Shown here in pieces: positions 16,538 through 52,565 of a stretch of DNA of 64,000 nucleotides (positions are counted from its first letter, which is position 1; each line of letters opens with the position of its first letter). This stretch comes from Vicugna vicugna (Eukaryota). The notes under the pieces were generated by a model. It was given only the letters and a program-made list of their open reading frames with translations. It had not been told where the DNA came from and searched no databases. The stretch covers positions 180,545 through 244,544 of the forward strand of contig MU057416.1 in NCBI GenBank assembly GCA_013265495.1, given 5' to 3'. The position numbers and the translations under genes are program-made.

Positions 16538-16740
16538 TCCAGACACACACTACTACATACAACAGAGATAAACAGCAAGGTCCTACTGTACAGCAGGGGG
16601 AACTGTATTCAACATCTTATAATAACCCATAGTGAAAAAGAATATGGAAATGAATATATGTATGTATAGTTGAACCACTGCGCTGTACACCAGAAGTTAA
16701 CACAACGTTGTAAATCCACTAGACTTCAATTTGAAAAAAG
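16538..16740 (+). mobile_element. L1 3' end
   Basis: CACACTACTA…ATAAACAGCAAGGTCCTACTGTACAGCA…GCTGTACACCAGAAGTTAACACAACGTTGTAAATC…A tail. Confidence 0.85.
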
Positions 16741-21876: not shown

Positions 21877-23049
21877 GCTTCATTTTTCAAATTTTTACAT
21901 TGCTTTCACACCATGTTTTGCCTTTGCTAAGCCTCCCCTTGCTGAATCCTACAGATATGGACCCTTGACTTCTCTGTTCTTTCAGAAGCAGAGCCAGGGT
22001 CAAATCCAGGGCTTCCTGTAGTCACTCCAAGACCCCTTTTCTCCCCCATGAGCAGATGAAAAATCTGTTTCTTGTACAAAGATACTACTGGGAAATTTTT
22101 TGAAAACAAGTTTTATTTTAACTGAATTCATAAGCAAGTCTCTGAGCTGTAACGTCCAGTAAACGATGGAGTCATTTTTTCCCAAACTACACCCTCTTCT
22201 TCTCCACATCTGCTCACACTCCCATCGTCCTGAAAAGTGCACTTGGAAAAGGATGGATTTGATCAGATACTTTTCTGGCAACACTCCAAGGACCTTAATA
22301 AAGAAAAGCTAATATATGTTCCCCTTTTATTTTTTTTCTGTTGTGAACATCTGATTTCACAACTATGAGAACAAATGCTGGGTTTTTTTTTTTTGACATT
22401 AAGTGAAATCTAAAAGTATTTCCTAGCTTCTGCTTTGAATTCATTTTTATACTTACCTCAGGAGTTTTGGTAGTGATCTAGACATTTTGCAAGTGTGGTC
22501 ACACAAGTGCACCTCTGGCACAGCTTGGGGGGGCCACATGACAGACCCAGCTTAAATACTGAATATGAATGTTCCTATTTTTGCCTTTCATCAGCATTTT
22601 TAAGGAAAGACATTGAAACCCAAATTCATGATAACATATTTATAATATCTGATTAATAATGTTCTACAATCCCATTAGGTATAAAAATTATATTCACCTT
22701 CCTATGTGAAACCTGGTCAGTCTGGGGTTTAAAGGTTGGTAATAAAAGAAAATCCTATTGAAGAAATACATTGAAAAGTGAAACATAAGATAGCTTTGGA
22801 CACACTGACTACTTAAAATTAAAAACAAAGGCTGAAAAATAAAGGCTGAAATAATTTCCTAATGAATTTAGTACATAATATGTTTCAGAAATATTTACAT
22901 TACAATTTTTAAATCTAGGGATCTTTTCCCCCGTAAGCTCCAAAACAATTTGTAACTAATATCATCAAAACACAATTTCGGAGAAGTCACTGTAAGGGCA
23001 GCATAGCTGACAGATTAAAACCCTCTTCCCGCTCTGTGTCTCTCGGTTA

Positions 23050-23880
23050 CTCTTGAGCTCTGCCTTTCCCTTCACAGGCCTCTTCCAGCCTCGTGGGCTG
23101 CGCCCTCTCGCTTCCCGTCCACCCACCTGCTTACTGCTTTCTGGCCGCTTCTCCCCATCCGCCCCCGAAACTGCTGGCTTTCACAGCCAAGCACCGCCAC
23201 CCGGCCGCCTGGCTTCTGAAACGCTAGATGCCCTGGACCAGGGGAGCCTCGCTTCCCTCCGCCTCTCCGGGCGCGCGGGCGTCATCGCCAGCTTTCTTCC
23301 CGCTGGGACGCCCGCCTCGCCTAGTTGCCCCAGGGCGCGACCCCGGCCTCGCGGGGCTGCCGCGCTCTCCGCAGCGCTCGGGCGGCGCCTCTCCTGCTGG
23401 CTCCGTTAGCGCTGGGGCGGCGTCTCCCCGGGGCCATCCCGCCGCCAACCCGCCTTCTGCAGGGTGCTGGCTGCCACGTCTGTCTCCCCAGCTTTGCTTG
23501 CTCTTCTGCCTTGAGACCCACTGGTGCAGCTGCGCGGCGGACGCCCCCGGCTGGAGCGCCACCGGCATCGCGGACACGCACGCCCCAAGCCGGACGCCGC
23601 GGCGTCCTCCACTGGCCCACTCGGCCCTCGCGCTCCCCGGCCCAGTGAATGCTGTCGGCCTTCCCACAGCTAGGCTCCAAGGCAGGAACTTAGGATGTGC
23701 GCTGAATCTCTCCATTTCCCGCAGCTCAGCATTTAGTCATAAAACATCCCCGAGACCGTAGCCTTAAAGCTGAAATCCCCCCTTCTGCCCACGGCCGCCG
23801 CCGCAGACCGCTTGGCTTCCTCCGGCGGGACGGCCTGAGATCGCCGCCCCCCGCACCTCTGTGTTTTTCTGGCTCATGAA
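23050..23880 (+). mobile_element. L2 LINE remnant converted into a CpG island
   Basis: Collinear with the recalled L2 3' consensus (…CCCCAGC…GAGACCCA…CAGCTGC…GGAC…C.GG…CCAC.GGCA…CAGTGAATG…CCAAG.CAG.AAC.TAGGA) but with very high GC and CpG. Confidence 0.65.
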
Positions 23881-23989
23881 AACTTCCTTTTTAAAAAAAG
23901 AAATTCACTTTGTGTTTATTTAGTTATTTAGCTATTCATGCCTTTCCGAGTGATTTAAAGTTTAGTTAGATCTTGCTGTTTCCATGTGA

Positions 23990-26455: not shown

Positions 26456-29017
26456 AGGCAACCTTACTCTTAAAGTCCAGCTTTATCTGACCGGCGGCTG
26501 CGTGCCTGGATCTGAAACGGGTGGGCTCACTTCTGCTCTCCCTGCTGATGTCCCATAAGCATGTCCAGAGCTCTGCCGATGATCAGAATACCATTCCTGC
26601 CTCAGAACTGAGGGCTGTGCCTCAAACTCAAGGCTGTGGGTGCTCTGTGAGATTAAAACTGCGCCTTAACGTGAAAAAGGCAGTAGAAGACTCGGCTGTC
26701 GTGGGAAACAGACCCGCAAAGAGCAGTTTTACTTGGGCCCCCCCGTGTCCTCTCTCCAGTGTTACTGAGGGGCTTGCAGTTGTTGTTTTGTGCTTTTTAA
26801 ATAACTTGATTCAGTCGAACCAGCCTCAGTGCAGCGCATGGAGCCTGGCGGGCTGTGTGGACACCCAGGCCGGCCCCGGCCACCGAGCTCTCAGGCAGAG
26901 AGAAGCCGTGCTCCGAGGGTCTGAAAGGGCGATGATCTTAGCACCGCTTTAAAAGCCTATGGTGTTCTTTTGCCTTTGGGGAGTGTCTCCGCCAGTCAGT
27001 GAGGAGGGACAGTGAACTGAGCGTGAGGCTGACAAGAGGCTGTGTCTTCTTCCGTCCAGCTGTGACAATCTTTTTTTGGTGCATGTGTCAAACTTAACAT
27101 CTGTGCGGTCAGTGAGGGGTTCTGGGGTAGTTTTCTAGGTGATGGCCTGATGTCTGGGACCCAGACGACACGGCCCTGGTGTCCGAGCGCCTTTGGGACG
27201 GGCAGCCTGGGACTCAGAGCCCGTGGGGCCCAGCCGTGTCCACTGCTGCTACAGAGATAGAATCATGGGTGAGAGGTGATTGGGAAGTCATGTGTGTTTG
27301 AGGGCTGGTATCTTTGCTGTCACTTATAAGCCTTGATCTCGATAAGATGTTTTTAAAGCCCTCCACGCGGTGAGGGGAGTGCACAAGGAATGCATAAAAC
27401 ACAGCACTGCCTGTGCTAAGAGCATCCAAGCCAAGGGCACACGGAATACCGCATTCTGCCTGTGAACTCTGGACTCTCAAATTTCTTGCCCAGCACAAGT
27501 GGCATTAACCATAGGAAAAATCATGCGGAAATTCAGAATTCAAGACAGTAAGCAGGTACAGATTTTTACCTACCTCATAATTAAAAACAAAATGAGATCT
27601 GGCGGGCCAAGTAAATGAATACATGGCTCAGCCCCAAGAGCCTCTTAGAAGAGCTCTAACTACCACTGGGTCCCTGGTGCCCATTGCAAAAGGGTCACCA
27701 TCGATGGCCACCAGGAGGAAAAGGCAGAGGGATGGATGGTGTTGACTGGAATGAATGTTTATTTGACACCACCTGTGTGCCTGCTGTCTGTTTCGAGAAG
27801 CCCTGTGCCACCACTACGTCTCATCGTCCCATTCACTCACACACACACTGGGTGTGTGATTCTGTCTCTGCACAAGGAGAACGAAGCCCACAGGCATTCT
27901 TTAACCTGCACCAGGTCCTGACGGGCTGAGCTAGGATTCAAAGCCAGGCCAGCTGAGCCCAAAGGAAAGCCCAGGTCGTTCTGGGCATTGTTTTGCATTC
28001 TGTTCTCCATCGCAGGCCATAAATATCGATGTATATGAAAATTCAAAAGCACATGAAAATGGCAAGAGGAACCACAATACCGTCTTGTGAAATGAGGAAT
28101 TACACATCCCATATCTTACAGGGAGTTTCAAAATCACATTGCTCAAAGTTGTGTCACTGAGGGAACGCGTGCGGGAGCTCGACTAGGACCAAAACCCGAG
28201 GTATTTATTATTTACCTTCCGTAGACGAGCCTTTGCTGCGGAAATGCGAGGGGTGCCGGTTTCACCGGCGCCTGTAGGAGACACACAGAGAGTTAAGAAG
28301 TCCAGTGCCCAGAGGTGGTCGCTGCGATGGTGGTGACAAAAGAAGTGATTAGGACCATTTTTGATTTCCTAAGTGAGGAAGTGCTCAGCGCTTACTCAAG
28401 GGCTGAGCGCTTAACTAAGAGCTTCACAGCCAGTATCTTATCGAACAGGCATAGAGCCTGATGAGTAGATATTACAGATTAACTGAAGAAGGACTGCTGT
28501 TCAGAGAGGGTATGTCACCTGTCCAAGGTCACACTCCCTTGAGCTGTTTTCACAGTCTGTGAGCTAACTGGACCAGTCTGCATAAAAAGATAACTAATTA
28601 AAGTCAGTTTATGACCAACATCCCCATGAGTGCGACACAATTATTATTCTAAAAGTCAGAAGACCTCAGTGGCCTGGGGAGCCCAGGAAATTGCTATGAA
28701 GTTGGAATTTGAACCAAGTCTGGAGGATGGCTCCAGGGTTGTTAAAAGAAGGAAAGATACTGCAGGCTAGGGTCAGGTTAAACTGACAGGGAGAAAGGCG
28801 CCAAGTGCTTAAATCCTGCTGGGTTGCCATAAATTGCATTTGAGCTGAGTGTGAAACGAGTGATTTCAGTTAAGCACATTGATACTTTTATCGGGAAGGC
28901 AAGTCAGAGCTGGACTGGGAAGGGTTTTCAGTAATAATAGTAAAGATTTTAGAATCTGCTACTAAAATAATTGAATGAGAACAGCGCATGTCAGCACCTT
29001 CTAAGAGTGGACTCGTG

Positions 29018-31379: not shown

Positions 31380-31417
31380 NNNNNNNNNNNNNNNNNNNNN
31401 NNNNNNNNNNNNNNNNN
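31380..31417. other. Assembly gap (38 N)
   Basis: Run of N next to a C-rich tract. Confidence 1.
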
Positions 31418-33159: not shown

Positions 33160-33410
33160 CCCATCCTCCTCCCCCCGTTCTCCCCCATCCTCCTCCCATC
33201 CTCCTCCCCATCCTCCTCCCATCCTCCTCCCCATCCTCCTCCTCATCCTCCTCCCCATCCTCCCCATCCTCCTCCCCATCCTCCTCCCCCGTCCTCCCCA
33301 TCCNNNNNNNNNNNNNNNNNNNNNNNNNNNNNNNNNNNNNNNNNNCCATCCTCTCCATCCTCCCCATCCTCCCCCCATTCTCTTCCCCATCCTCCTCGCC
33401 ATCCTCCATT
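33160..33410 (+). repeat. (CCATCCTCCTCC)n-like pyrimidine-rich low-complexity repeat containing an assembly gap
   Basis: Tandem CCCATCCTCCT units; N run at 33304-33345. Confidence 0.95.
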
Positions 33411-35073: not shown

Positions 35074-35091
35074 TGGCGCCACCTACTGGGA
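35074..35091 (-). promoter_or_regulatory. CTCF motif
   Basis: Minus strand TCCCAGTAGGTGGCGCCA, a near-consensus CTCF core. Confidence 0.65.
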
Positions 35092-36192
35092 TATTTCTAA
35101 ATATTCCTTTGTCCAAATGATGAAAACAGGCACTTACGAAGGAAAAAAAAGGTGTAGAAAATGTTGCCCCCGGAAGAGTACAAGTCAAAGGGTAACACAC
35201 AGAAGCCGCAGGTGCACGACGGCGCTCAGCTTTATTGTGCTCGCCTGGCCAGACGTGGGCGCAGAGCTTAAGGGCACACTCGGCGCAGCTCAGGCTTAGA
35301 GAAACGCGGTGTTTGATGCTGCTTTTCTTTCATTGTCACATCCGAAGTACGTGCCCTCTTAATTCTTACTGTTTCACATATTTTTCTTTCCCTGCGTTCC
35401 ACAACCTCCCAGCATTATTCACAGATAATGTTTACGTACGTTGTAACGTTATTTATATGGACACAGCCTCCTAATGTTAAGCGGGCATTTATTATGCACT
35501 GGTTATTGAATGCTTTAGGCAGATGTTTCATTAGCTTTGGGTTCATGTGACTCCACTAACTGTAAATGGTTGCTTTCAAGTGATGCACGAACTAGGGTAT
35601 AAATAGCACGGGGCTGTCACCTATTCCAGACAGCGGAGGTGACCTGGTTGGCCAGGCAGATCACTCCGGGGCCAAACCCAGCAGCCAAATGGGTAGATCG
35701 TGACACAACTAAACGACTCCTACAAGCATTCTTACCAGGCCTTGTTCAGCGCTGGTCCCTCCTGCTGTGGTTTTGCTCATGTTCTGATGATGTCCGGTTC
35801 GTGAAATGCAACAGGCACTTGAAATCACTGCTCAGAGAACTGAGGGAGAGTTACAAAATGGGGTGAGATGTTGACACCTTGTGCAGACGGCTGCTACTGC
35901 GGCCCCCTCTGAGGATGCACATAACTTCGCCTACCCGCTGCCTTTCCTCGTGGGGGAGCCAGGCTCTGCGGGAATGCTTGCTGGTGTCCCGCTGATGTTT
36001 CTGTAAAAGTCGTTGGATCATTTTTGGGGGGAGGGGGAAAAATGTCCTTTAGATATTACCTGTGTGTTACAGAGACGGTGTATCTGCCTATAGGGGTTCT
36101 GTGACCGTGAAACAAGTCATTTTAATCGCATCCCAAGTCTCAACTGTGATGCCGAGGGCTCAGAGTTGTCTTTCAAAATGACAGGAGGCTGG

Positions 36193-42950: not shown

Positions 42951-43023
42951 TAGACATTTTTTCAAAGTATTTTTCTTCCAGTTTTTAAAAATTGAGCTAT
43001 AGCTGACATATAGTGCTATATAC

Positions 43024-43137
43024 TTTTGGGGGGTGCAGGGGAGGTAATTAAGGTGTATTTATTTATTTATCTTAATGGAGGGATGGGGGACTGAACCCGG
43101 GATCTCCTGCTTGAGAGGCACACACTCTATTGCTGAG
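43024..43137 (-). mobile_element. Vic-1-like SINE (older or diverged copy)
   Basis: GGGGAGGTAATTAAGG…ATTTATTTAT…ATGGAGG…GACTGAACCCGGGATCTC. Confidence 0.8.
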
Positions 43138-43425
43138 TTTGTTTTCGATCTAAACCTATTATATCTACACCTCTGAAGGCATCTACAGCTGTATCCATGC
43201 AGGTGCACATACGTGTGTGCACTTTCAAATGCACACGCCTATACACATATACACCATGACTCACAGCTGTGTGGTGTGTGCATGTGCACACACGTACATG
43301 TATGCACATTTAAGTACACACCATCATGGACGGGAGTCAGTAGGCTCAGATGGGCTGACGTTTCAGGATATGATTCACCTCACCTGTTGATTTTCTCCTC
43401 CCTGCATCTCTCATGACTGTGGCAG

Positions 43426-43623
43426 GACTGAACACAACAGAGGCGTCCACAAGTCTGCCTCCAAGTGACCCCTTTCCTGCTCGCACCACCGCATTCTCAC
43501 CCGCAAGCATCTCTGAACCAGGCAAGGCCGCCTCAGAGACCGTGCCTCCTCTAAACGCAGGCAGTCCCACCGCGGAAGTCTCCTGGAACCACACGGCTCA
43601 TAATGGTACTTCTGCTGTCACAG
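43426..43623 (+). CDS. PTPRC: PTPRC variable exon 4 (CD45RA), 198 nt: GLNTTEASTSLPPSDPFPARTTAFSPASISEPGKAASETVPPLNAGSPTAEVSWNHTAHNGTSAVT
   Basis: GGCAG|GA acceptor, ACAG|GTTGGC donor, 198 nt. Clear similarity to human exon A (SDPLPTHTTAFSPAS). Confidence 0.96.
43454..43513 (+). promoter_or_regulatory. ESS1/ARS exonic splicing silencer of CD45 exon 4 (hnRNP L/hnRNPLL-responsive)
   Basis: Repeated GCA-containing motifs CTCGCACCACCGCATTCTCACCCGCAAGCA, nearly identical to the human ESS1 core as recalled. Exon position 77 (43502) is C, the silencer-intact state. Confidence 0.75.
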
Positions 43624-44681
43624 GTTGGCGGACATCCTAACTCAGATGGGGTTAGGGAAACTTGGCACTCTCTCTGTTTTTTCGTTATTTCTTCTTCTTT
43701 TTTTAAATTTTAAAGACATCAGAACAGTTTTTCTTTAAGTTAAGTGTTTAGGTTCTTTGTGTGTGATCTTACAAAATGTGTAAAACGCAGAACATCCAGG
43801 TGTGAATGAAACGTTGGCTGACTGAAGTGACGCCCTGGGGCTGTCAGGGAGCAGGGGGCGAGGGAAGTCCGCCTGGGCAAAATCCGGGTTAGGGGTGTTT
43901 GCGGTGTTCCCTGATCTGTCTCTGCCAACCACATCATTCTCCTGGTCCCGCTCACCTAGGTTTCCTGTGGGCCCGACAGGTCAGAACTCCCTGCTGCGGG
44001 TCTGGGTCGGCCCCGCCCTCCCTGGCTCTTACCCCGGAGTAGAAGCTTTCTTGGTTCAGTTTCAGATTCTCAGTATCAGAAAATTATCAGAGACAGACAG
44101 TTCATTTTTTTTAACCACACTGAGGATTAATAATCCAGTTTAGTTACTTGGATTTCCTCCAGGAATAGTTGCATTATTTTTCAAAAATTAATAAATTAGG
44201 GTTGTGCATCCTAATGGTAGAATTAAAGGTACTGTGGCCAAGTTCATAGCAAAATATCAGGCTACCGTAGGAGGTGTTTCTGCCCGGCGTAGCCCCGGAT
44301 GCCCCTGGAATCTGGGGGCACCCCTGATCTGCTTGTTGGTCCTTTGTGAAGCAGACAGTTTCTAGACATGCTCTGGTCAGAGACTGAGCTCTGTGTTCAG
44401 CAAGGTCATCAGTCTTGGCTTGGAGCACAAGCGTGGGGAGCTCCGGCCCGGACTTGCGGCCCAGGGTATGTGCAGTGTTTTGAGCACCATCTTGATGGAG
44501 GTTTCTGGCTGCCCTCCCGCCAGGTGAACTGAAATACGGGCCGACTGGCCCTTGAAGAGACGGAGCCATTTCCCACGTTGGTAAACTGTAATACCAGTTT
44601 GCTGCTTGTAACCTCTCGGTATTTGAAATTTTCACCTGCGCTGGGGAGGTGGTGATGCAATGACCTCACCTTCCGGCCGTC

Positions 44682-44807
44682 GGCGGCCGTCAGCGCGGAC
44701 GCCGCACCTGTCGGCGCCCGCGGGCCCGCTGGCGCCCTCTGCCGGCCGTGGCGCCCGGTCGCCTGCCCCGCAGCGTCAGCCCCGCTCCCGGGCGGCGCCG
44801 AGTCCGG
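44682..44807 (+). pseudogene. PTPRC: Degenerate relic of PTPRC variable exon 5 (CD45RB); probable pseudo-exon
   Basis: Lies between exons A and C. Translates RPSARTPHLSAPAGPLAPSAG, aligning to human exon B [21 protein letters not shown]. No AG at the expected acceptor (…CCGTC|GG) and GC rather than GT at the expected donor (CCGG|GCTGCC). Extremely GC/CpG-rich. Boundaries approximate. Confidence 0.8.
44730..44748 (-). promoter_or_regulatory. CTCF motif inside the exon-5 relic
   Basis: Minus strand reads GGCCGGCAGAGGGCGCCA, matching the CTCF core CC(A/G)SYAGRKGGCRS. Human CD45 exon 5 is a known CTCF-bound exon. Confidence 0.6.
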
Positions 44808-47338
44808 GCTGCCGGCCCCCTAGACTCGTGCAGCTACGAAGAGCGCACGGACAACGTTTAACGACGCGGGGAGGGAATCCAAGCGCTGGTCCACGGGTCG
44901 CATTTGCTGGCTGATGAATTTGGAAATTCATCCTTTCATAGTTACCCTCCCGCCAGGAGACCGCGTAACAAAGGTCCTTGTAATGGAGATGAAATACTGA
45001 AGAATGAGAATTACGAGTGCGCTGGAAAAGCCTGTTCACGGGGTTCTTCAGGGCTTCCTCTGTTTCTGTTTGGGACAAGTGTTACTGCGCAGTGGAAACC
45101 TCCTTTCGTTAGAGATGAAGAATATGTACGCAGGTTCTTTACTTCAGGACCTCCTGCCAGTAACAGAAAGATGAAAAGCAGGCCGTGCCTCTTATCGCCG
45201 AAGCACACTGAGAAATTGTAACCACAAGTACACTGTTTATTAAAAGACTGAAAAAAAATTAGATGCTTACATTCTCCGTTCGAACACCAAGATCCTTTCA
45301 GTTAAGCACCTCTGTCTATAGAAGCTGCAGACTATCCCCTCCCTGGTCTTTCCAAAATCACTGCCTAATCAGTTCACGGTGCCCTTTTTTATCCTGAAAA
45401 ACAAGCATGTTTCTCGGGTTAAAAATGCACACAGACACGTGTAGCCATTAGTGACCTGAGGGCCTGGAAGTGACAGGTGTGACTGGGGAGCCTGCCAGCA
45501 CAGTGACTTTCCTTTCAGTATGAATCCCACGCGGAAGCAATATATATCAAGTAAAGTAATTATAATTTTGAAGCGTTAAGACGCTTCCCTTGGCCTGAAA
45601 AATCATGACAGGCAATCCACAGACTTTAAACATCTGGGAAAAGATCTGCCCTCACCTCCCTGCCTGGTTTCCTGGCTCCCACTACCGTGGGAACCGCAGT
45701 AAAAAAATGTGACACTGCTAGCAAATCCATGGATTCCCAGGGTGTGGCCGAGAAGGAGGCGTGACCTGGGGGCTGACTGTCACACAGAATTCTTCCTCTC
45801 ATAGGGGCGAATTCCACTGATTAAAAATCGATTAAGATTAATTAACCTAATTAAAGTAGTAATTACCACTCCTAAGCCATCCCCGAGATTACCTGCTCCA
45901 AGGAAGTGGTTTTCATATGAAAGGGGAGGTGGGGGATTTAGCGAGTGGGGGAGGGGCCCTCAGAACCACCTGACTACCGGGGACACCTGGGAGGGGCAGA
46001 GAGAACACGGGTTAGCGAAAAGAGGAGAAGAAAAGAGCGTGGAGGAAGGCAAGCCTGGCTGATTCCAAAATTTGCAGAGGGCCAGTTCTGTGCCTCCAAT
46101 TTTTTTAAAAGGATAAAAAAAAATGCATTTTCTACTCTTTTCCTTGCTCTGTTGGAACTTTCCTCTGAGAAGCCAGAGCTGAAAAATTGATGTTTCTGTT
46201 GTTCATACTATTCCACGATTGAGTTAAATTTGGAAAGTTTAGTGGTTTTTGAAGATTGAGCTGAGAACCCAAACTCAGAATTTTGGAAGATGCCCGTTCA
46301 AGCCTCGCAGCGTGTACATGTGTGATTGGAGGCCGCCTGTGTGCTGGCATCAGAGCACGTGTGCCCGTGCCGCTGGGCTTGAATACTGAGGATCTGACTG
46401 CAAATCCCAGACTAACCTCACACCGTTGAACCAGTGACCCCAGGGATCGTAACGGTGAAATAACCACATGAACTCAAATAGGAGCTGGCCCGAATTTCTT
46501 TTGCCTTTGTCGGGACCACTAGTGAGGTGCTGAGCAGATGGTGGGCACCCAGTGAGCGCCCATGGCCCGCCTGTGCTGGGAGGAAGGTGCGACCTGCTGT
46601 AGGTGCTCTGACCTTGATGATGGAACGTCCTGACCAGACACAGGGTGGCGTCTCGTGGGCGGCCACCCTTGATGGTCTACACTAGCTAGCACGTATGAGA
46701 TTGGAGAAGAGGGGATGTTGTCTGTGTAACGTGGAGGCTCTTGGGCTCCAATCCCGTCTTAGTTTTCCTGGTCTCCGTAGAGAAAGTAGAATTAGGACCT
46801 TCAGCTGGAAGGAAAAAACCCGAGCTCAGCAGCTGCACGGGCAGCGTCCCCTTCAGCTCTGCTCTAGGAAAATTAGGTGAAGCGCCTGCACCCAGGGGTC
46901 CCTCCCCAGAGAGGTGCGTCCCACCCGAGGCGCTGGGCAGGGCGGGCTGCAGGCCCCCGTGCAGACCTGGCGGCAGCCTCTGGCCCTCCGAGCTCACTTG
47001 CAGCCCTGCGGTCTCTGCACCAGCCAGCGGCACCCACTCTGTGCGTTTTCAGGGTTCTCTAAAGCAGCCCTCCCCGGGGCAGTCCTCCAGGCGGACATCC
47101 CAGACCATTTCCAAATGTGTGCCGTGTTTGGAAAACTGCCCGGGATCTGAGCTGTCTGTCCGTGAACTCGTCTCTCCCACAAGCTGTGCTGCTCTGCACC
47201 CCGTTTTGCAGGCACATACGTTGTGGCATAGCACGAGGGCTGCAGCAGCAGTGGGCATGCGGACGTTGGCTGCGTGGCCCCTGCCCTGGCGCGGGCGGCA
47301 GGGGTGCGTGGCGCTGCTGACGACCTGTCTGATTGCAG

Positions 47339-47482
47339 GTGCTCCCGGAGAGAGGATGACAGCCCGCACCTTGCCCGCAGACACTGCTCCCTCACCAGCA
47401 ACCACCCTCAGCCCCGCACACAGCAGCCTCGCTGCCTTGCCTCCACGCATCTCCAACTCGACCACCAAAAATACCACCTCAG
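47339..47482 (+). CDS. PTPRC: PTPRC variable exon 6 (CD45RC), 144 nt: GAPGERMTARTLPADTAPSPATTLSPAHSSLAALPPRISNSTTKNTTS
   Basis: CTGATTGCAG|GT acceptor, TCAG|GTTTGA donor, 144 nt. Similar to human exon C ([42 protein letters not shown]). Confidence 0.96.
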
Positions 47483-48258
47483 GTTTGACCGTGATGCTCT
47501 AGGTGTTTTAGGTGCTGGATGATGAGATAAAAACTTGAAACTTTCATGCAGCTCTTTTATTTCACACCAAATATTACTTGCAGCTTTCCCATTTTACCAA
47601 TTTTCACATATTGATACTAAATTAGGCGAAACACTCCTCAATTTACCAGGAAGCTTTTTCTGGGCATATTTTATTTTATTATTTATGTTATAAAAGTTTA
47701 TGGCAAAGAAGAAAGACAACAGATTTTAGTGTCATCTAGCTGAGAGCAAATCCAGCCTCTTTTAATTTCCTAGCTGACTTTGGGACAAGTGACTCTTAGC
47801 TTTCTTTGTGTCGGTTTTCCCTTCTGGAGAAATGGATATAATGATACTCATTTCACACAATGGATGTGAGCACTGAATCTGTAAAAAGCCTGGTATGAAA
47901 TGAATAGAACAAAAGTGTAACCGGTGTCCTTGTTAGTAATTAAAATAAGGAGAGTGGTAACTGATCGGGTAAGGACTAGCCTGGGCAGGACTGCACATCA
48001 AGGCAGAATTGTACCAAGGAACGAACGGCTTCCTCTCAACTTACCTGAAGCTTAGTTCCAATCCTTTGAACTGTTGGTGATCTTAAAGAGCCTTGTGTAG
48101 ATTAACCTTTGACTCACTTTCTTATTTTAAAAAACAAGTGAGTGTCAACTCAAACTAGGAAGAGATTCGGTTAAGTTGGTCTTTGCTGAAGCGTTTCCGC
48201 CTCGCCCTGCAACGTGACAGACGCATTAACCGGTGTTCCTCTGTTCATTTCCTTGCAG

Positions 48259-48339
48259 ATTCGCTCTCCACATCCCCTGCACCATCCTCTCTGACCACTG
48301 CAGCAAGCACTTACTCTGCAACAGCTCCCACAACCATAG
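48259..48339 (+). CDS. PTPRC: PTPRC exon 7, 81 nt: DSLSTSPAPSSLTTAASTYSATAPTTI
   Basis: TTCCTTGCAG|AT acceptor, ATAG|GTGACA donor. S/T-rich, ends TTI as in human exon 7, phase 1-1. Confidence 0.9.
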
Positions 48340-49469
48340 GTGACAACCTGACCCCCAGTCATGCAGTCACACCACCGCCACGCGCTTGGGACACGCTCAC
48401 AGAAGGGTCTTCCGTTTGCTCCCCCCTGGGCTCTTCCCCGGAGAAGTTCGCTTGAGGGTTCTAATCCCGAGGACTAGTCAGAACCACTGCTCTGTGTCGG
48501 CAGTGCGGCAGCTAAGGAGCTCAGGGCGTGGCGTTGTGGTGACAACCTACAGCGTCACGGTCGCAGCATCCCTCAAGAGTTGTGTGCTTCATGAGACGCA
48601 CGGAGAAATGACCAGCTAGGCTAGGACTTCTAAGAGCGGGTTTTGGTATTAGGATGGAAAAGGACAGTTCTGTCAGTGGGGATCTCTGTTTCACGAGGTC
48701 AGTAGCAGGGGAGTGATCACAGGGCCCCAGCCGTGCGCGCGGGGCGTGGAGACAAAGGCAGGGCGTGAACGGCCATCACTTGGTGGGTGTCCATCAGAGG
48801 TCAGCCACGCGGAGCCTGCAAGCGTACCATTCTCCCCCCAGTTTCTCCAACTCAACAATCAGATTAGCGGAGAGCTTTCAGCCTCCACAAAGCACATTTC
48901 CACTCAGTTCTTCAGTCAAAGACACGCACTCACACAAGATATGTCTCAGGGGCTGGAGAGCACAGTTTGGTGCCCTGGACCCAGTATCTGTGTGAAGCTT
49001 ACAGAGGTTAAACCAGGGAGTGAAGCAGCCCTTGCTTACTCTCTGATTTTTTTTTAAACAAAGGTGTGAACTGAACTCTCCAGGGGTAGTGATTCTATAA
49101 ATGTATTTGAGATTCATTAAGGGGATGAAGACTTTTTAAACGAACAGTCAGCCACGTTATTGCCATTCTGTGATCAATGTGTGTCCACCAGGTCTTAATG
49201 CGACATAGTCACAGTTGTGTTCATTGGGTCAATTCATGAAAATGTCTTATAGAACTAGCTCCTTGGTTTACAACCTTTGAAGTTTTGAGATCAAGACGTG
49301 GGACCAGGCACCGCCACCTCTGCGTTAATCTGCTCAGCCTAGCTCAGTCGCCTCTCCAGTTTATGGAGATGAACCTTTGTAAAGCGCCCTTCCCCAAAAT
49401 GACCAGAGCGGAGATATTCTAAAATGCAGCTTTCATAATTTGAATTCTTTTTTTTTTTGTCTATTACAG

Positions 49470-49496: not shown

Positions 49497-51226
49497 GTAA
49501 GTTTGTTTAATTAAAGGCAATGTCTATCACTTTAGAAAAGCTCTTAAATTATTTCCTTCTTTATTCCAAGCTTCCAACACTCCCTAGCGAGCTAAACTCC
49601 CTGACTCTGGTTCCTTGCCAGTGGTTGTCTCCTGTTCTTAAAAGCCAAGATCCTTCAGGGCAAGGAGCTTTGGCGTCATACTTGGACCTGGTTCTGAGGA
49701 CCCGGGTTGATGGTTACTAGCGAAACAGTTCACTTCAGTTTGGGATTTTATACAGTGATAGGATTACGAGTTTGTCTTGGGCTCGGGGGAGGATTCAGGG
49801 TGATGAGAAATATGAAATGTGAATAATACCTCACAGCTAATCAAGAAGAGAACGGTCCTCCTGTCTGTCTGTCTCTGTCTCTCTGTCTTGCCAGGGTTCA
49901 GCTCAGAGCAGGTGCTTGAGAACAGCTTGTGCCCATCCTTTTCCCATTATTCTTCCTGTGTTCTCAGTGGAAGCAAGGTCCTTCTTCATGGCCAGGGCTC
50001 CTGCCTCCAAGTGTTCCTAGATCTCACCGCTGGGGTCCCTGCCTTCGGTGGCTCTCCGCACATTCAGAGTGAACGTCCACCTTCGTGTGTTTGCTTGACT
50101 AATATGACCCCGCGTGACCAGGTTTCTCATGTGTTACTGCTTCCTCGCACTGTTCACTAAGTAACATGCCAGCATACGCAGCTTTTCAAGCACACGTTTC
50201 TTGCGGGCCCCATCTTCCCTCCTGCTCTCCTTCCTCTCCCCTTGGAATCCCACGCCATCCTCACCCAGCGCCGCCGCCTCCATCAGTCTGTCCATGCCCT
50301 GCTCCCAAGTTAAGATGCAAACAGAGTCACCTCCTCCGGACACCTCTCCTGTGCCTACAGTCTGAACTGACTTCTCTGTCCTTTTCCTCCGTGTTATTCT
50401 GTGCATGATCTTATTTTAGGTGTTTTTCCTGTTTTCTGTGGTTCCTGCTTATGCCTGTGTCCACGTTGGATCCTAGGGTCCCCAAAGCTTAGCGTTTGTA
50501 TCCCTAGTGCCTGGGACAGTGTCTTAAGCTAAGTAAGGGCTTCGTAATTTTTGTTGCACTAAAAAAAAATGAGTGAATATATTAATGGGTGTTGAAAAGA
50601 TATATTCACCAGTCAGTGGCATCTATTTAAATAAAGGGGAGCGTGAGACTACACTCTCATTTTCACACTAAGGAGGCATCGTTACCCATAATCTTACAAA
50701 AGCGGAGGAATGATGTCACCTGTGGTCTCCAAGTACGATGTTCTGCATGTCGAGAGAAAGAGGCCATCCAGTACTCCGTTTCAGAAAGCAAGGGGGTGAT
50801 AAAGCAGGAGAAGGAATGTGTCAGGTGCACTGTGCATTTTTTTGCTGCGTAATTCAACAATCACCGAGGCCCTGCTCATGACAAGTGTGACACAGGGATC
50901 CGGATCTGTGGTGATGATCAAAACAGACAGGGCTTTGCTATCATGGGATTTACAGTCCAGTTAGGAAGACAGACAGACATGAATCCAGCAATCATATAAA
51001 TACAAGCTTACAAGCCGGGGTCCTTGCTAGGGCGGTGACATAGACGGAATTATGAAAGAGTGACATGGAGGCCCCCGGTGTGTCCTTTTCCTTTTTTATG
51101 TTCCTGGGGATATTTTGTTGGTGATTTGCTATTTTTTTAAAGTACGTGTTGAGTTTGTATTACGCAATGTAGGTTTATTCGTTCTGAAAACTAAAGGACA
51201 ATCTTCGTGGTTTAATTTTCTTTCAG

Positions 51227-51445
51227 AAAATAAATATGAAGACATCCATGTGCGTTACTCTTACAACAAGGATAACAAAACATACGACGCAACACTTACT
51301 GTTGGTGATAATGTGACATGTGACCCCCTTGAGTGTAGGAACAAGCAGCTGTTTGGTCTGGAGACATGCACAGATCACACTATAGAGATAAAACATGAGT
51401 CATGTGGTGATCCACCTAAATCTCTACAATTAGAAGTTCCACCAG
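51227..51445 (+). CDS. PTPRC: PTPRC exon 9, 219 nt, Cys-rich domain d1: ENKYEDIHVRYSYNKDNKTYDATLTVGDNVTCDPLECRNKQLFGLETCTDHTIEIKHESCGDPPKSLQLEVPP
   Basis: TTTCAG|AA acceptor, CCAG|GTAAAT donor. Four Cys with the same spacing as human d1; ends LEVPP. Confidence 0.96.
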
Positions 51446-52565
51446 GTAAATGTCCATTGATTTCTGTCTGTGTATTTACAACAGGGCAGTTTTGCGTGTG
51501 GCGCCTCCCAGTGGTCACAGGAATCAGTAGGTGGGAGAACAGGCCAGCGGGGTGGACTTCCCACTCCCCTGACCCAGTGACAACAGAACCGCCCACAAGC
51601 CTCTGCGTTTGTCCCGTTAATCCAACAACCGAGTGAACACCCGCCTCCCTGCGCTTCATGAGGGCAGCTCACGTCGATGAGATGTGGCTCCTCCTGAGCG
51701 AGTGCTCAGCTTTCTCCTCCTCTACCTAATTCAAGTTGTTCGACACGGATGTGCCCACAGCAGCCCTTCTAAATCCAAGTGTGGCTGCAGTATCTTGGAG
51801 GGGAAACGGAAAGGCGAAGGTTTGATGTTTGTGGAAGGAGCAAAAGTGCGCTCACCCCCAAAGCTGAGTCACGGGCACGTCAGAGCGCTCAGGGCGGCTT
51901 CCGGGGACGAAGGGGCGACCCCCGGAGCCCGCTCCACAGAGGCCGCCTCAACGACACGCGCTTTCCAGGAGGGATCCGCGGACTGCGTGAACTTGCTGAA
52001 TCTCTCTCCTCTGTGAACAATCCAAGAGCGCTGATTGGCTTGCTAATGTTTGAACAGGTCAAAGTCTGGTGTTTTTGAAAAAATGCCACTTAACTTACTC
52101 ACTTTTTCTAAATGTTTCTGAAATACATTACCAATTAAAAATAGAAAATGACTACTTAAAAAAATAACATTTCCCAAGAGGGAAGACTGCAAGCTCTGTG
52201 TAATGATCATTCAATAAAACAATCAAAGTGTAAGCGAAAATTTGGAGATATAAGTAAGAAAACAAAATGGAATGAGTGTTTTAAAATGGGCAAAAAAAAT
52301 GCAATTTTATCTGGACGTTTGCTTGAGTACCATTTCTTCAATGTAGCATAAATTCTAAATGAAATGCTGCTAAAATGTGTGACGTTCAAAAAGAATAAAC
52401 TAAACATTCAAGAAATGCAAAACCCTGAGAGGCCTTAGACTTTTTCAAAAGTAACCTAGATTCTTGCCAAACTCTGTGTGCTGAATGTAGTTTCAAAGAC
52501 GATCTCGGAGCCTACAGAACAGCACTAAGTACTCGTCACCTATTTTTACATCTTCTTCTTGACAG

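Follow-up and report, generated by a model that had tools for sequence, protein, structure and literature searches.

Can the DNA-level function of an exon outlive its coding function? The variable exons of CD45 (PTPRC) raise this question. In humans, a CTCF site with a strong motif lies within CD45 exon 5 (exon B), where it was assayed with a 72-bp probe centered on the site, as described in PMC6699469. The published CTCFBSDB score of the human motif is 18.16. According to the review PMC8373115, the published model is that CTCF bound in exon 5 slows RNA polymerase II (Pol II), so that a weak upstream acceptor is used, and that methylation evicts CTCF. The same review credits Shukla et al. 2011 and Marina et al. 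2016 with showing that Pol II pausing promoted by CTCF favors the inclusion of exon 5 and that 5-methylcytosine blocks this pausing. The human site is inseparable from the RNA and protein roles of its exon, since any mutation there affects the three together. A lineage with a dead exon and an intact motif would therefore be a natural experiment. We analyzed a 64,000-nucleotide stretch of Vicugna vicugna DNA (the window), in which an initial annotation had described a CTCF motif surviving inside a decayed exon B.

The window holds the 5' half of PTPRC on the plus strand. A frame at 51064-51636, when translated, matched human CD45 ectodomain structures (four distinct PDB sequences, best E 2.5e-13), and searching a protein collection with the exon at 51226-51447 returned two Camelus PTPRC models among 16 candidates. 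We ordered the exons by tblastn with Camelus bactrianus PTPRC isoform X1 and placed their ends by reading the splice sites. The resulting layout is given in Table 1, together with the features of the region between exons A and C. The identities of exons A and C to Camelus, 92-93%, fit a camelid of another genus. Stretches of N at 31380-31417 and 33304-33345, both short, are possibly assembly gaps. Twenty-four sequencing runs matched, 14 of them with at least half of the words. Four runs are recorded as RNA, three of these at shares of 0.27-0.28; the shares alone are uninformative about the exon-B region. We also searched metagenome contigs for DNA from other mammalian hosts, using an eight-sequence exon-A alignment; this gave 273 pattern matches, none of them confirmed.

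Table 1. Features of the camelid PTPRC (CD45) locus in the 64-kb window.
Feature	Position	Strand	Description and basis
CD45 variable exon A (exon 4)	43426-43623	+	198 nt; tblastn 93% identity to Camelus PTPRC; splice sites
CpG-island-like segment around the relic	44432-45200	.	769 bp, GC 0.59, observed/expected CpG (o/e) 0.95, 63 CpGs; core coincides with the relic
Exon-B relic (CD45 variable exon 5)	44649-44823	+	175 nt; between exons A and C; TPHL/PSAG trace, human primer matches, splice sites
Probe-primer-like block, two copies 38 nt apart	44664-44727	+	copies start at 44664 (first 11 nt exact) and 44702 (17/26)
Near-consensus CTCF core motif, 19-mer CGGCCGGCAGAGGGCGCCA	44730-44748	-	matrix scan, shuffles, IUPAC match, CpG positions
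CD45 variable exon C (exon 6)	47339-47482	+	144 nt; tblastn 92% identity to Camelus PTPRC; splice sites
CD45 exon 7	from 48258	+	tblastn and splice sites
CD45 exon 8	near 49469	+	
CD45 exon 9 (first ectodomain domain)	51226-51447	+	tblastn and splice sites
Further PTPRC exons (n=4)	reaching to 62434	+	tblastn

We identify the patch between exons A and C, as judged by sequence, as the homologue of exon B; its position, protein traces, DNA traces and gene models agree. An open frame across 44627-44914 reads ARTPHLSAPAGPLAPSAGRGARSP and contains TPHL, seven residues and PSAG, the exon-B pattern seen in ten aligned mammals. The apparent protein-level homology is weak. Rhinoceros exon B aligned to the relic with a tblastn E of 0.12. 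When we scanned with a profile of exon B from ten mammals and left the HMMER composition correction on, the relic frame was absent among the matches listed, which reached E 29. With the correction off, it scored E 0.098 and ranked third of the 2198 open reading frames in the window, behind exon 7 and one unrelated frame. A search for relatives of the relic frame (95 aa) in a collection of 5.8 billion protein sequences gave 58 candidates, none of which reached E <= 0.01.

In its splice signals and translation, the relic looks like a decayed exon. A purine-rich tract precedes an AG/GT acceptor that is kept in the correct phase at 44647-44650. At the position of the old donor the sequence is TAG/AC, with no GT. 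The length of the relic is not a multiple of three (human exon B has 47 codons), so splicing it in would break the reading frame. Cryptic GTs at 44748, 44775 and 44802 would keep the frame; by eye they are far from the donor consensus, MAG/GTRAGT. The translation is rich in Arg rather than in Ser and Thr, which makes it ill-suited to a mucin-like segment. The relic thus fails as a functional exon B in its AC donor, its length, its Arg-rich peptide and a profile match that is not significant with the correction on. A tandem repeat (10 bp x 2.2 copies at 44674-44695, found by TRF) lies between the two primer-like copies, and the repeat and the 38-nt spacing of the copies point to internal duplications within the relic. 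The interval 44600-44900 is single copy in the 2.03-Gb assembly from which the window comes, which argues that the patch is not a young repeat.

We examined the distribution of exon B among mammals by scanning PTPRC models with the exon-B profile. The models are predicted, with one per 90% cluster, and we considered the best 120 of 272. Within that set, exon B was found in 81 models at E <= 0.0015. It was present in 0 of the 26 cetartiodactyl models, which cover camels, pigs, hippopotamus, whales and ruminants, compared with 81 of the 94 others. The 13 models without B from outside Cetartiodactyla were mostly lower-numbered-exon isoforms and also included two pangolins. Three warthog matches at E about 10 were dismissed as noise. 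The longest Camelus isoform, X1, joins exon A directly to exon C, and an A-C form is the longest among the cetartiodactyl models. Porcine CD45 is not known to use variable exons other than A and C; our literature searches on exon B in pigs, cattle and camelids returned nothing relevant. These data suggest that exon B was lost long ago, perhaps in the cetartiodactyl stem, a date that we infer from predicted models. Taken with the decay of its donor, its broken length, its internal duplications and the A-to-C Camelus models, they bear out the decayed CD45 exon B of the initial annotation, and we consider it probable that the exon is dead in this camelid. In PMC3384337, human B-cell lines gave no exon 4-6 junction reads. 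Because A-C is the longest form in the cetartiodactyl models and its junction is unseen in those human lines, the splicing logic must differ between them.

The relic contains a CTCF core motif in reverse complement, as had been claimed from reading the letters. GGCGCCCTCTGCCGGC is located at 44731-44746 on the plus strand and falls within the minus-strand 19-mer, which sits 1107 bp downstream of the exon A donor and 2591 bp upstream of the exon C acceptor. We scored the window with a reconstruction of the JASPAR MA0139.1 count matrix, whose column sums and consensus look right. The 19-mer scored 20.2 bits against a matrix maximum of 26.1, the highest among the 20 sites of the 64 kb that exceed 8 bits (the next three scored 17.4, 16.8 and 16.0). 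The low matrix score that would have counted against the motif was therefore not observed with this reconstructed matrix. At the composition of the window, the probability that a given position on one strand reaches 20.2 bits is 4e-8; at 75% GC it is 7e-7, and 0.005-0.09 such sites are expected in 64 kb. Dinucleotide shuffles of 44600-44900 never reached 20.2 bits in 2000 trials (maximum 19.5), and only 16 of the 2000 reached 15. A 15-letter IUPAC consensus for CTCF, likewise reconstructed, fits the motif with one mismatch. Two matches at that level occur in the window (0.38 expected), and four of 100 shuffles give at least two. A search of a paper library for this consensus returned no match. 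The CTCF-core match at 44730-44748 is real and well beyond chance.

The fit is also informative position by position. The sole poor position is matrix position 6, where G replaces the preferred A at a cost of 1.8 bits. With this G the motif gains a CpG at positions 5-6, besides those at 1-2 and 15-16, and it has the essential A of matrix position 9. The motif is not a product of tandem repetition, since the only repeat that TRF reports is the short one upstream. GGCGCCC occurs three times nearby, at 44713, 44731 and 44750, and only the middle copy carries the full CTCF core. A 14-nt near-palindrome (GGCGCCCGCGGGCC / GGCCCGCTGGCGCC) in 44713-44736 overlaps the 3' end of the motif, which is its low-coordinate end on the plus strand. 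Four further strong CTCF-like motifs, all scoring below this one, are found elsewhere in the window. They include minus-strand motifs at 35074-35092 (17.4 bits) and at 51499-51517 (16.8 bits), the latter about 50 bp downstream of exon 9. The sites at 35074, 40559 and 20817 share CCAGTAGGTG and may stem from one repeat family.

We compared the position of the motif with that of the human exon 5 site. The comparison used the two primers of the human probe and the human codons. The primers, listed in the supplement of PMC6699469, are 26 and 29 nt long, which leaves 17 nt between them in the 72-bp probe. The placement of the forward primer at 44702 is one of 11, over both strands of the whole window, that reach 17 of 26 matches. 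That placement puts the 17-nt center at 44728-44744 and the center of the probe at about 44737-44738; the center of the camelid 19-mer is at 44739. In the other primer-like copy, the exact block at 44664-44674 has a local score that none of 500 shuffles reached. The reverse primer gave a weak gapped alignment at 44762-44788, and 40 of 500 shuffles were as good. The codons tell the same story as the spacing. The forward primer ends with the codons A-D-S, after which the human protein continues with Q-T-P-S-A-G. On the sense strand, the camelid 19-mer spans the codons L-A-P-S-A-G-R of the old exon-B frame, and P-S-A-G lies over the core in both species. A motif at the human spacing from a primer-matching flank indicates an orthologous site, and we identify the camelid motif as the positional orthologue of the human exon 5 CTCF site, presumably on the same antisense strand. 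The proposed link to the human site is thus upheld by primer spacing and by P-S-A-G.

The motif lies in the densest CpG patch of the window. The segment around the relic qualifies as a CpG island under the usual definition (at least 200 bp, GC at least 0.5, CpG o/e at least 0.6), and the relic itself has a GC content of 0.81, 29 CpGs in its 175 nt and a CpG o/e of 1.03. The flanking intron has GC 0.49-0.52 and o/e 0.49-0.59. The CpG density reported in the initial annotation is evident in sliding windows (GC 0.73 and o/e 1.06 at 44600-44799; GC 0.77 and o/e 1.10 at 44700-44899). Over the whole 64 kb, CpG density per 175 bp peaks in the interval that starts at 44675, with 32 CpGs; the runner-up, with 28, is part of a 1-kb island near 23.3 kb. 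That second island (1017 bp at 22932-23948, GC 0.62, o/e 0.90, 85 CpGs) is in a large upstream intron and has no recognizable coding frame. CpGs decay fast in methylated germ-line DNA. An o/e near 1 therefore implies that the relic either escapes germ-line methylation or has its CpGs restored by a GC-biased process. The window as a whole has GC 0.45 and CpG o/e 0.48, or 0.35 outside 43 weak island-like segments. Such GC and o/e values are higher than is usual in the gene bodies of mammals, which suggests that the region has evolved with a GC bias in this camelid.

The site resembles the human exon 5 site in several respects. It lies in the same gene and in a homologous exon, at the same P-S-A-G position and the same spacing from the upstream flank; it has a strong motif with CpGs in and next to its core, and it probably shares the antisense orientation. 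The two differ in their exons. The camelid exon lacks a donor and is out of frame, and B is absent from all 26 cetartiodactyl models among the best 120 of 272. Unlike the human pause site, the camelid motif thus appears not to lie within an alternatively included exon. They also differ in CpG content. The camelid 41-mer around the motif has eight CpGs, compared with three per strand in the 41-mer human probe described in PMC6699469, and the CpG at matrix positions 5-6 of the camelid site arises from its G at position 6. Constitutive CTCF sites and loop anchors in general, as represented by the reconstructed MA0139.1 matrix, share the high-scoring 19-mer core, which is known here from sequence. 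They share CpGs at positions where methylation reportedly governs occupancy as well; PMC8373115 describes variable occupancy as concentrated at two consensus CpG positions. Finally, the patch is like orphan CpG islands in its length above 200 bp, GC above 0.5, o/e above 0.6 and distance from any annotated promoter, and unlike them in its very small core (about 250 bp) on a former exon and in the many weaker island-like segments nearby.

We next considered why the motif is so well preserved. It is among the best-preserved parts of the relic, as had been noted, and the 11-nt block at 44664-44674 is another. The primer alignment at 44702 has nine mismatches, seven of which are changes from a human A or T to a camelid G or C. 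G/C positions are unchanged at 15 of 17 sites and A/T positions at only two of nine. Provided that the ancestral sequence was close to the human one, the drift in the camelid lineage has apparently been strong and from AT to GC. Such drift spares a GC-rich motif, which explains much of its preservation without selection. We simulated passive descent of the 19-mer with rates derived from the flank and 20,000 descendants. With GC bias, 2% of descendants kept at least 20 bits, 7% at least 17 and 16% at least 15. Without bias, at the same overall divergence, the corresponding values were 0.5%, 1.5% and 3%. These percentages come from 26 aligned bases, take the present camelid site in place of its ancestor and were obtained only after the motif had been singled out. 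Passive survival at this strength would be uncommon, and the result tilts towards some constraint, chiefly through the retention of the essential A at matrix position 9.

Our preferred reading is that the motif is the camelid orthologue of the human exon 5 CTCF site, that it survives in the CpG island of a dead exon, and that it is likely a methylation-gated CTCF site. We put the chances of this reading as a whole at about even. Its first step is predicted to be binding, with CTCF still occupying the motif wherever the patch is unmethylated. Occupancy is plausible, and our general experience with strong motifs in apparently unmethylated patches puts it somewhat above an even chance. In that case a methylation-gated CTCF site would lie within the gene, with exon A about 1.1 kb upstream of it and exon C 2.6 kb downstream. 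Genome-wide, CTCF about 1 kb downstream of alternative exons, or about 1.5 kb in another data set, goes with their inclusion, as stated in PMC8373115. Bound CTCF could act as a roadblock that slows Pol II after exon A and favors exon A. Alternatively, CTCF could anchor a loop to an upstream plus-strand site. The candidates for that partner, at 16587-16605 and 27705-27723, score only 16.0 and 14.7 bits, which sets the arrangement apart from known loop anchors. Any effect of the motif on the choice of exon A or C is speculative and, in our estimation, unlikely. A more far-reaching version adds selection: the ancestor shared by camels, pigs, ruminants and whales lost the use of exon B, and the CTCF site was kept as a methylation-gated roadblock or loop anchor that sets the choice of A or C in lymphocytes and keeps the patch unmethylated in the germ line. 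The last of these activities would explain the CpG island. We consider this full version distinctly unlikely.

The most serious competitor is that the motif is a neutral passenger. The relic may lie in a hotspot of GC-biased gene conversion, or be subject to similar drift, that spared the GC-rich core of a site with no maintained function, whether or not CTCF binds it. The direction of change in the primer alignment fits this explanation, as does the GC content of the relic relative to its flanking intron, and the one weak position of the motif, G for A at position 6, points in the same AT-to-GC direction. Small duplications by slippage, as in the relic, are commonly seen where GC-rich DNA is unstable, and the high CpG o/e across the window points to a regional process with nothing special to the motif. 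The simulation weighs on the other side, since few descendants retained 20 or even 17 bits, as do the retained A at position 9 and the shuffles, in which composition alone was insufficient to generate the motif. We regard passive survival as quite possible but less likely than not.

The remaining alternatives concern the patch rather than the motif. The patch could be an orphan CpG island that serves as an intragenic promoter or enhancer, for example of a non-coding or antisense transcript, with the CTCF motif as one component or an incidental one. Its island composition and CpG density are what such an element would show, one GGGCGG box is present at about 44790, and an antisense transcript is described, in PMC8156488, from human CD45 intron 2, elsewhere in the gene. 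Against this, the core of the island coincides with the old exon and has no recognizable promoter feature, and the interval 43000-48500 contains no known RNA family: an Rfam scan there gave only miRNA-like matches in a CA-rich stretch, the best of them far below gathering scores. We consider this explanation improbable. It is also conceivable that exon B is still spliced through weak or cryptic sites and that the CTCF site works as it does in humans. The open frame, the in-phase acceptor at 44649 and the in-frame GTs would permit splicing. An open frame means little at 81% GC, though, and the candidate donors are far from the consensus; the homologous donor position is AC. The Arg-rich translation has no relatives in the 5.8-billion-sequence collection, both Camelus models run from A to C, and none of the 26 cetartiodactyl models among the best 120 of 272 contains B. 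Continued splicing of exon B is therefore hard to credit.

The methylation-gated reading and its neutral competitor have different consequences. If CTCF binds and the usage of exons A and C depends on the motif, then selection can act on a DNA-level roadblock or loop function by itself, and an exon that is lost can live on as regulatory DNA. Should the motif prove to be unbound, or to have decayed elsewhere in Cetartiodactyla, the locus would be a clean example of GC-biased drift that mimics conservation. In either case, the absence of exon B from cetartiodactyl CD45 models bears on the use of CD45R isoform markers in livestock and camelid immunology.

Two further observations concern the extracellular part of the protein. 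Among the best 120 of the 272 PTPRC models, those from ruminants have a 14-residue unit, ASPPLTSN(S/P)TTQDN, that is repeated many times in tandem downstream of exon C. In the window, the protein identity of exon 9 to Camelus bactrianus is about 75%, or 62% along a longer tblastn stretch, which is far below the identity of exons A and C. This difference indicates that the ectodomain diverges fast between camelid lineages, in agreement with the positive selection on the CD45 ectodomain reported in PMC4379584.
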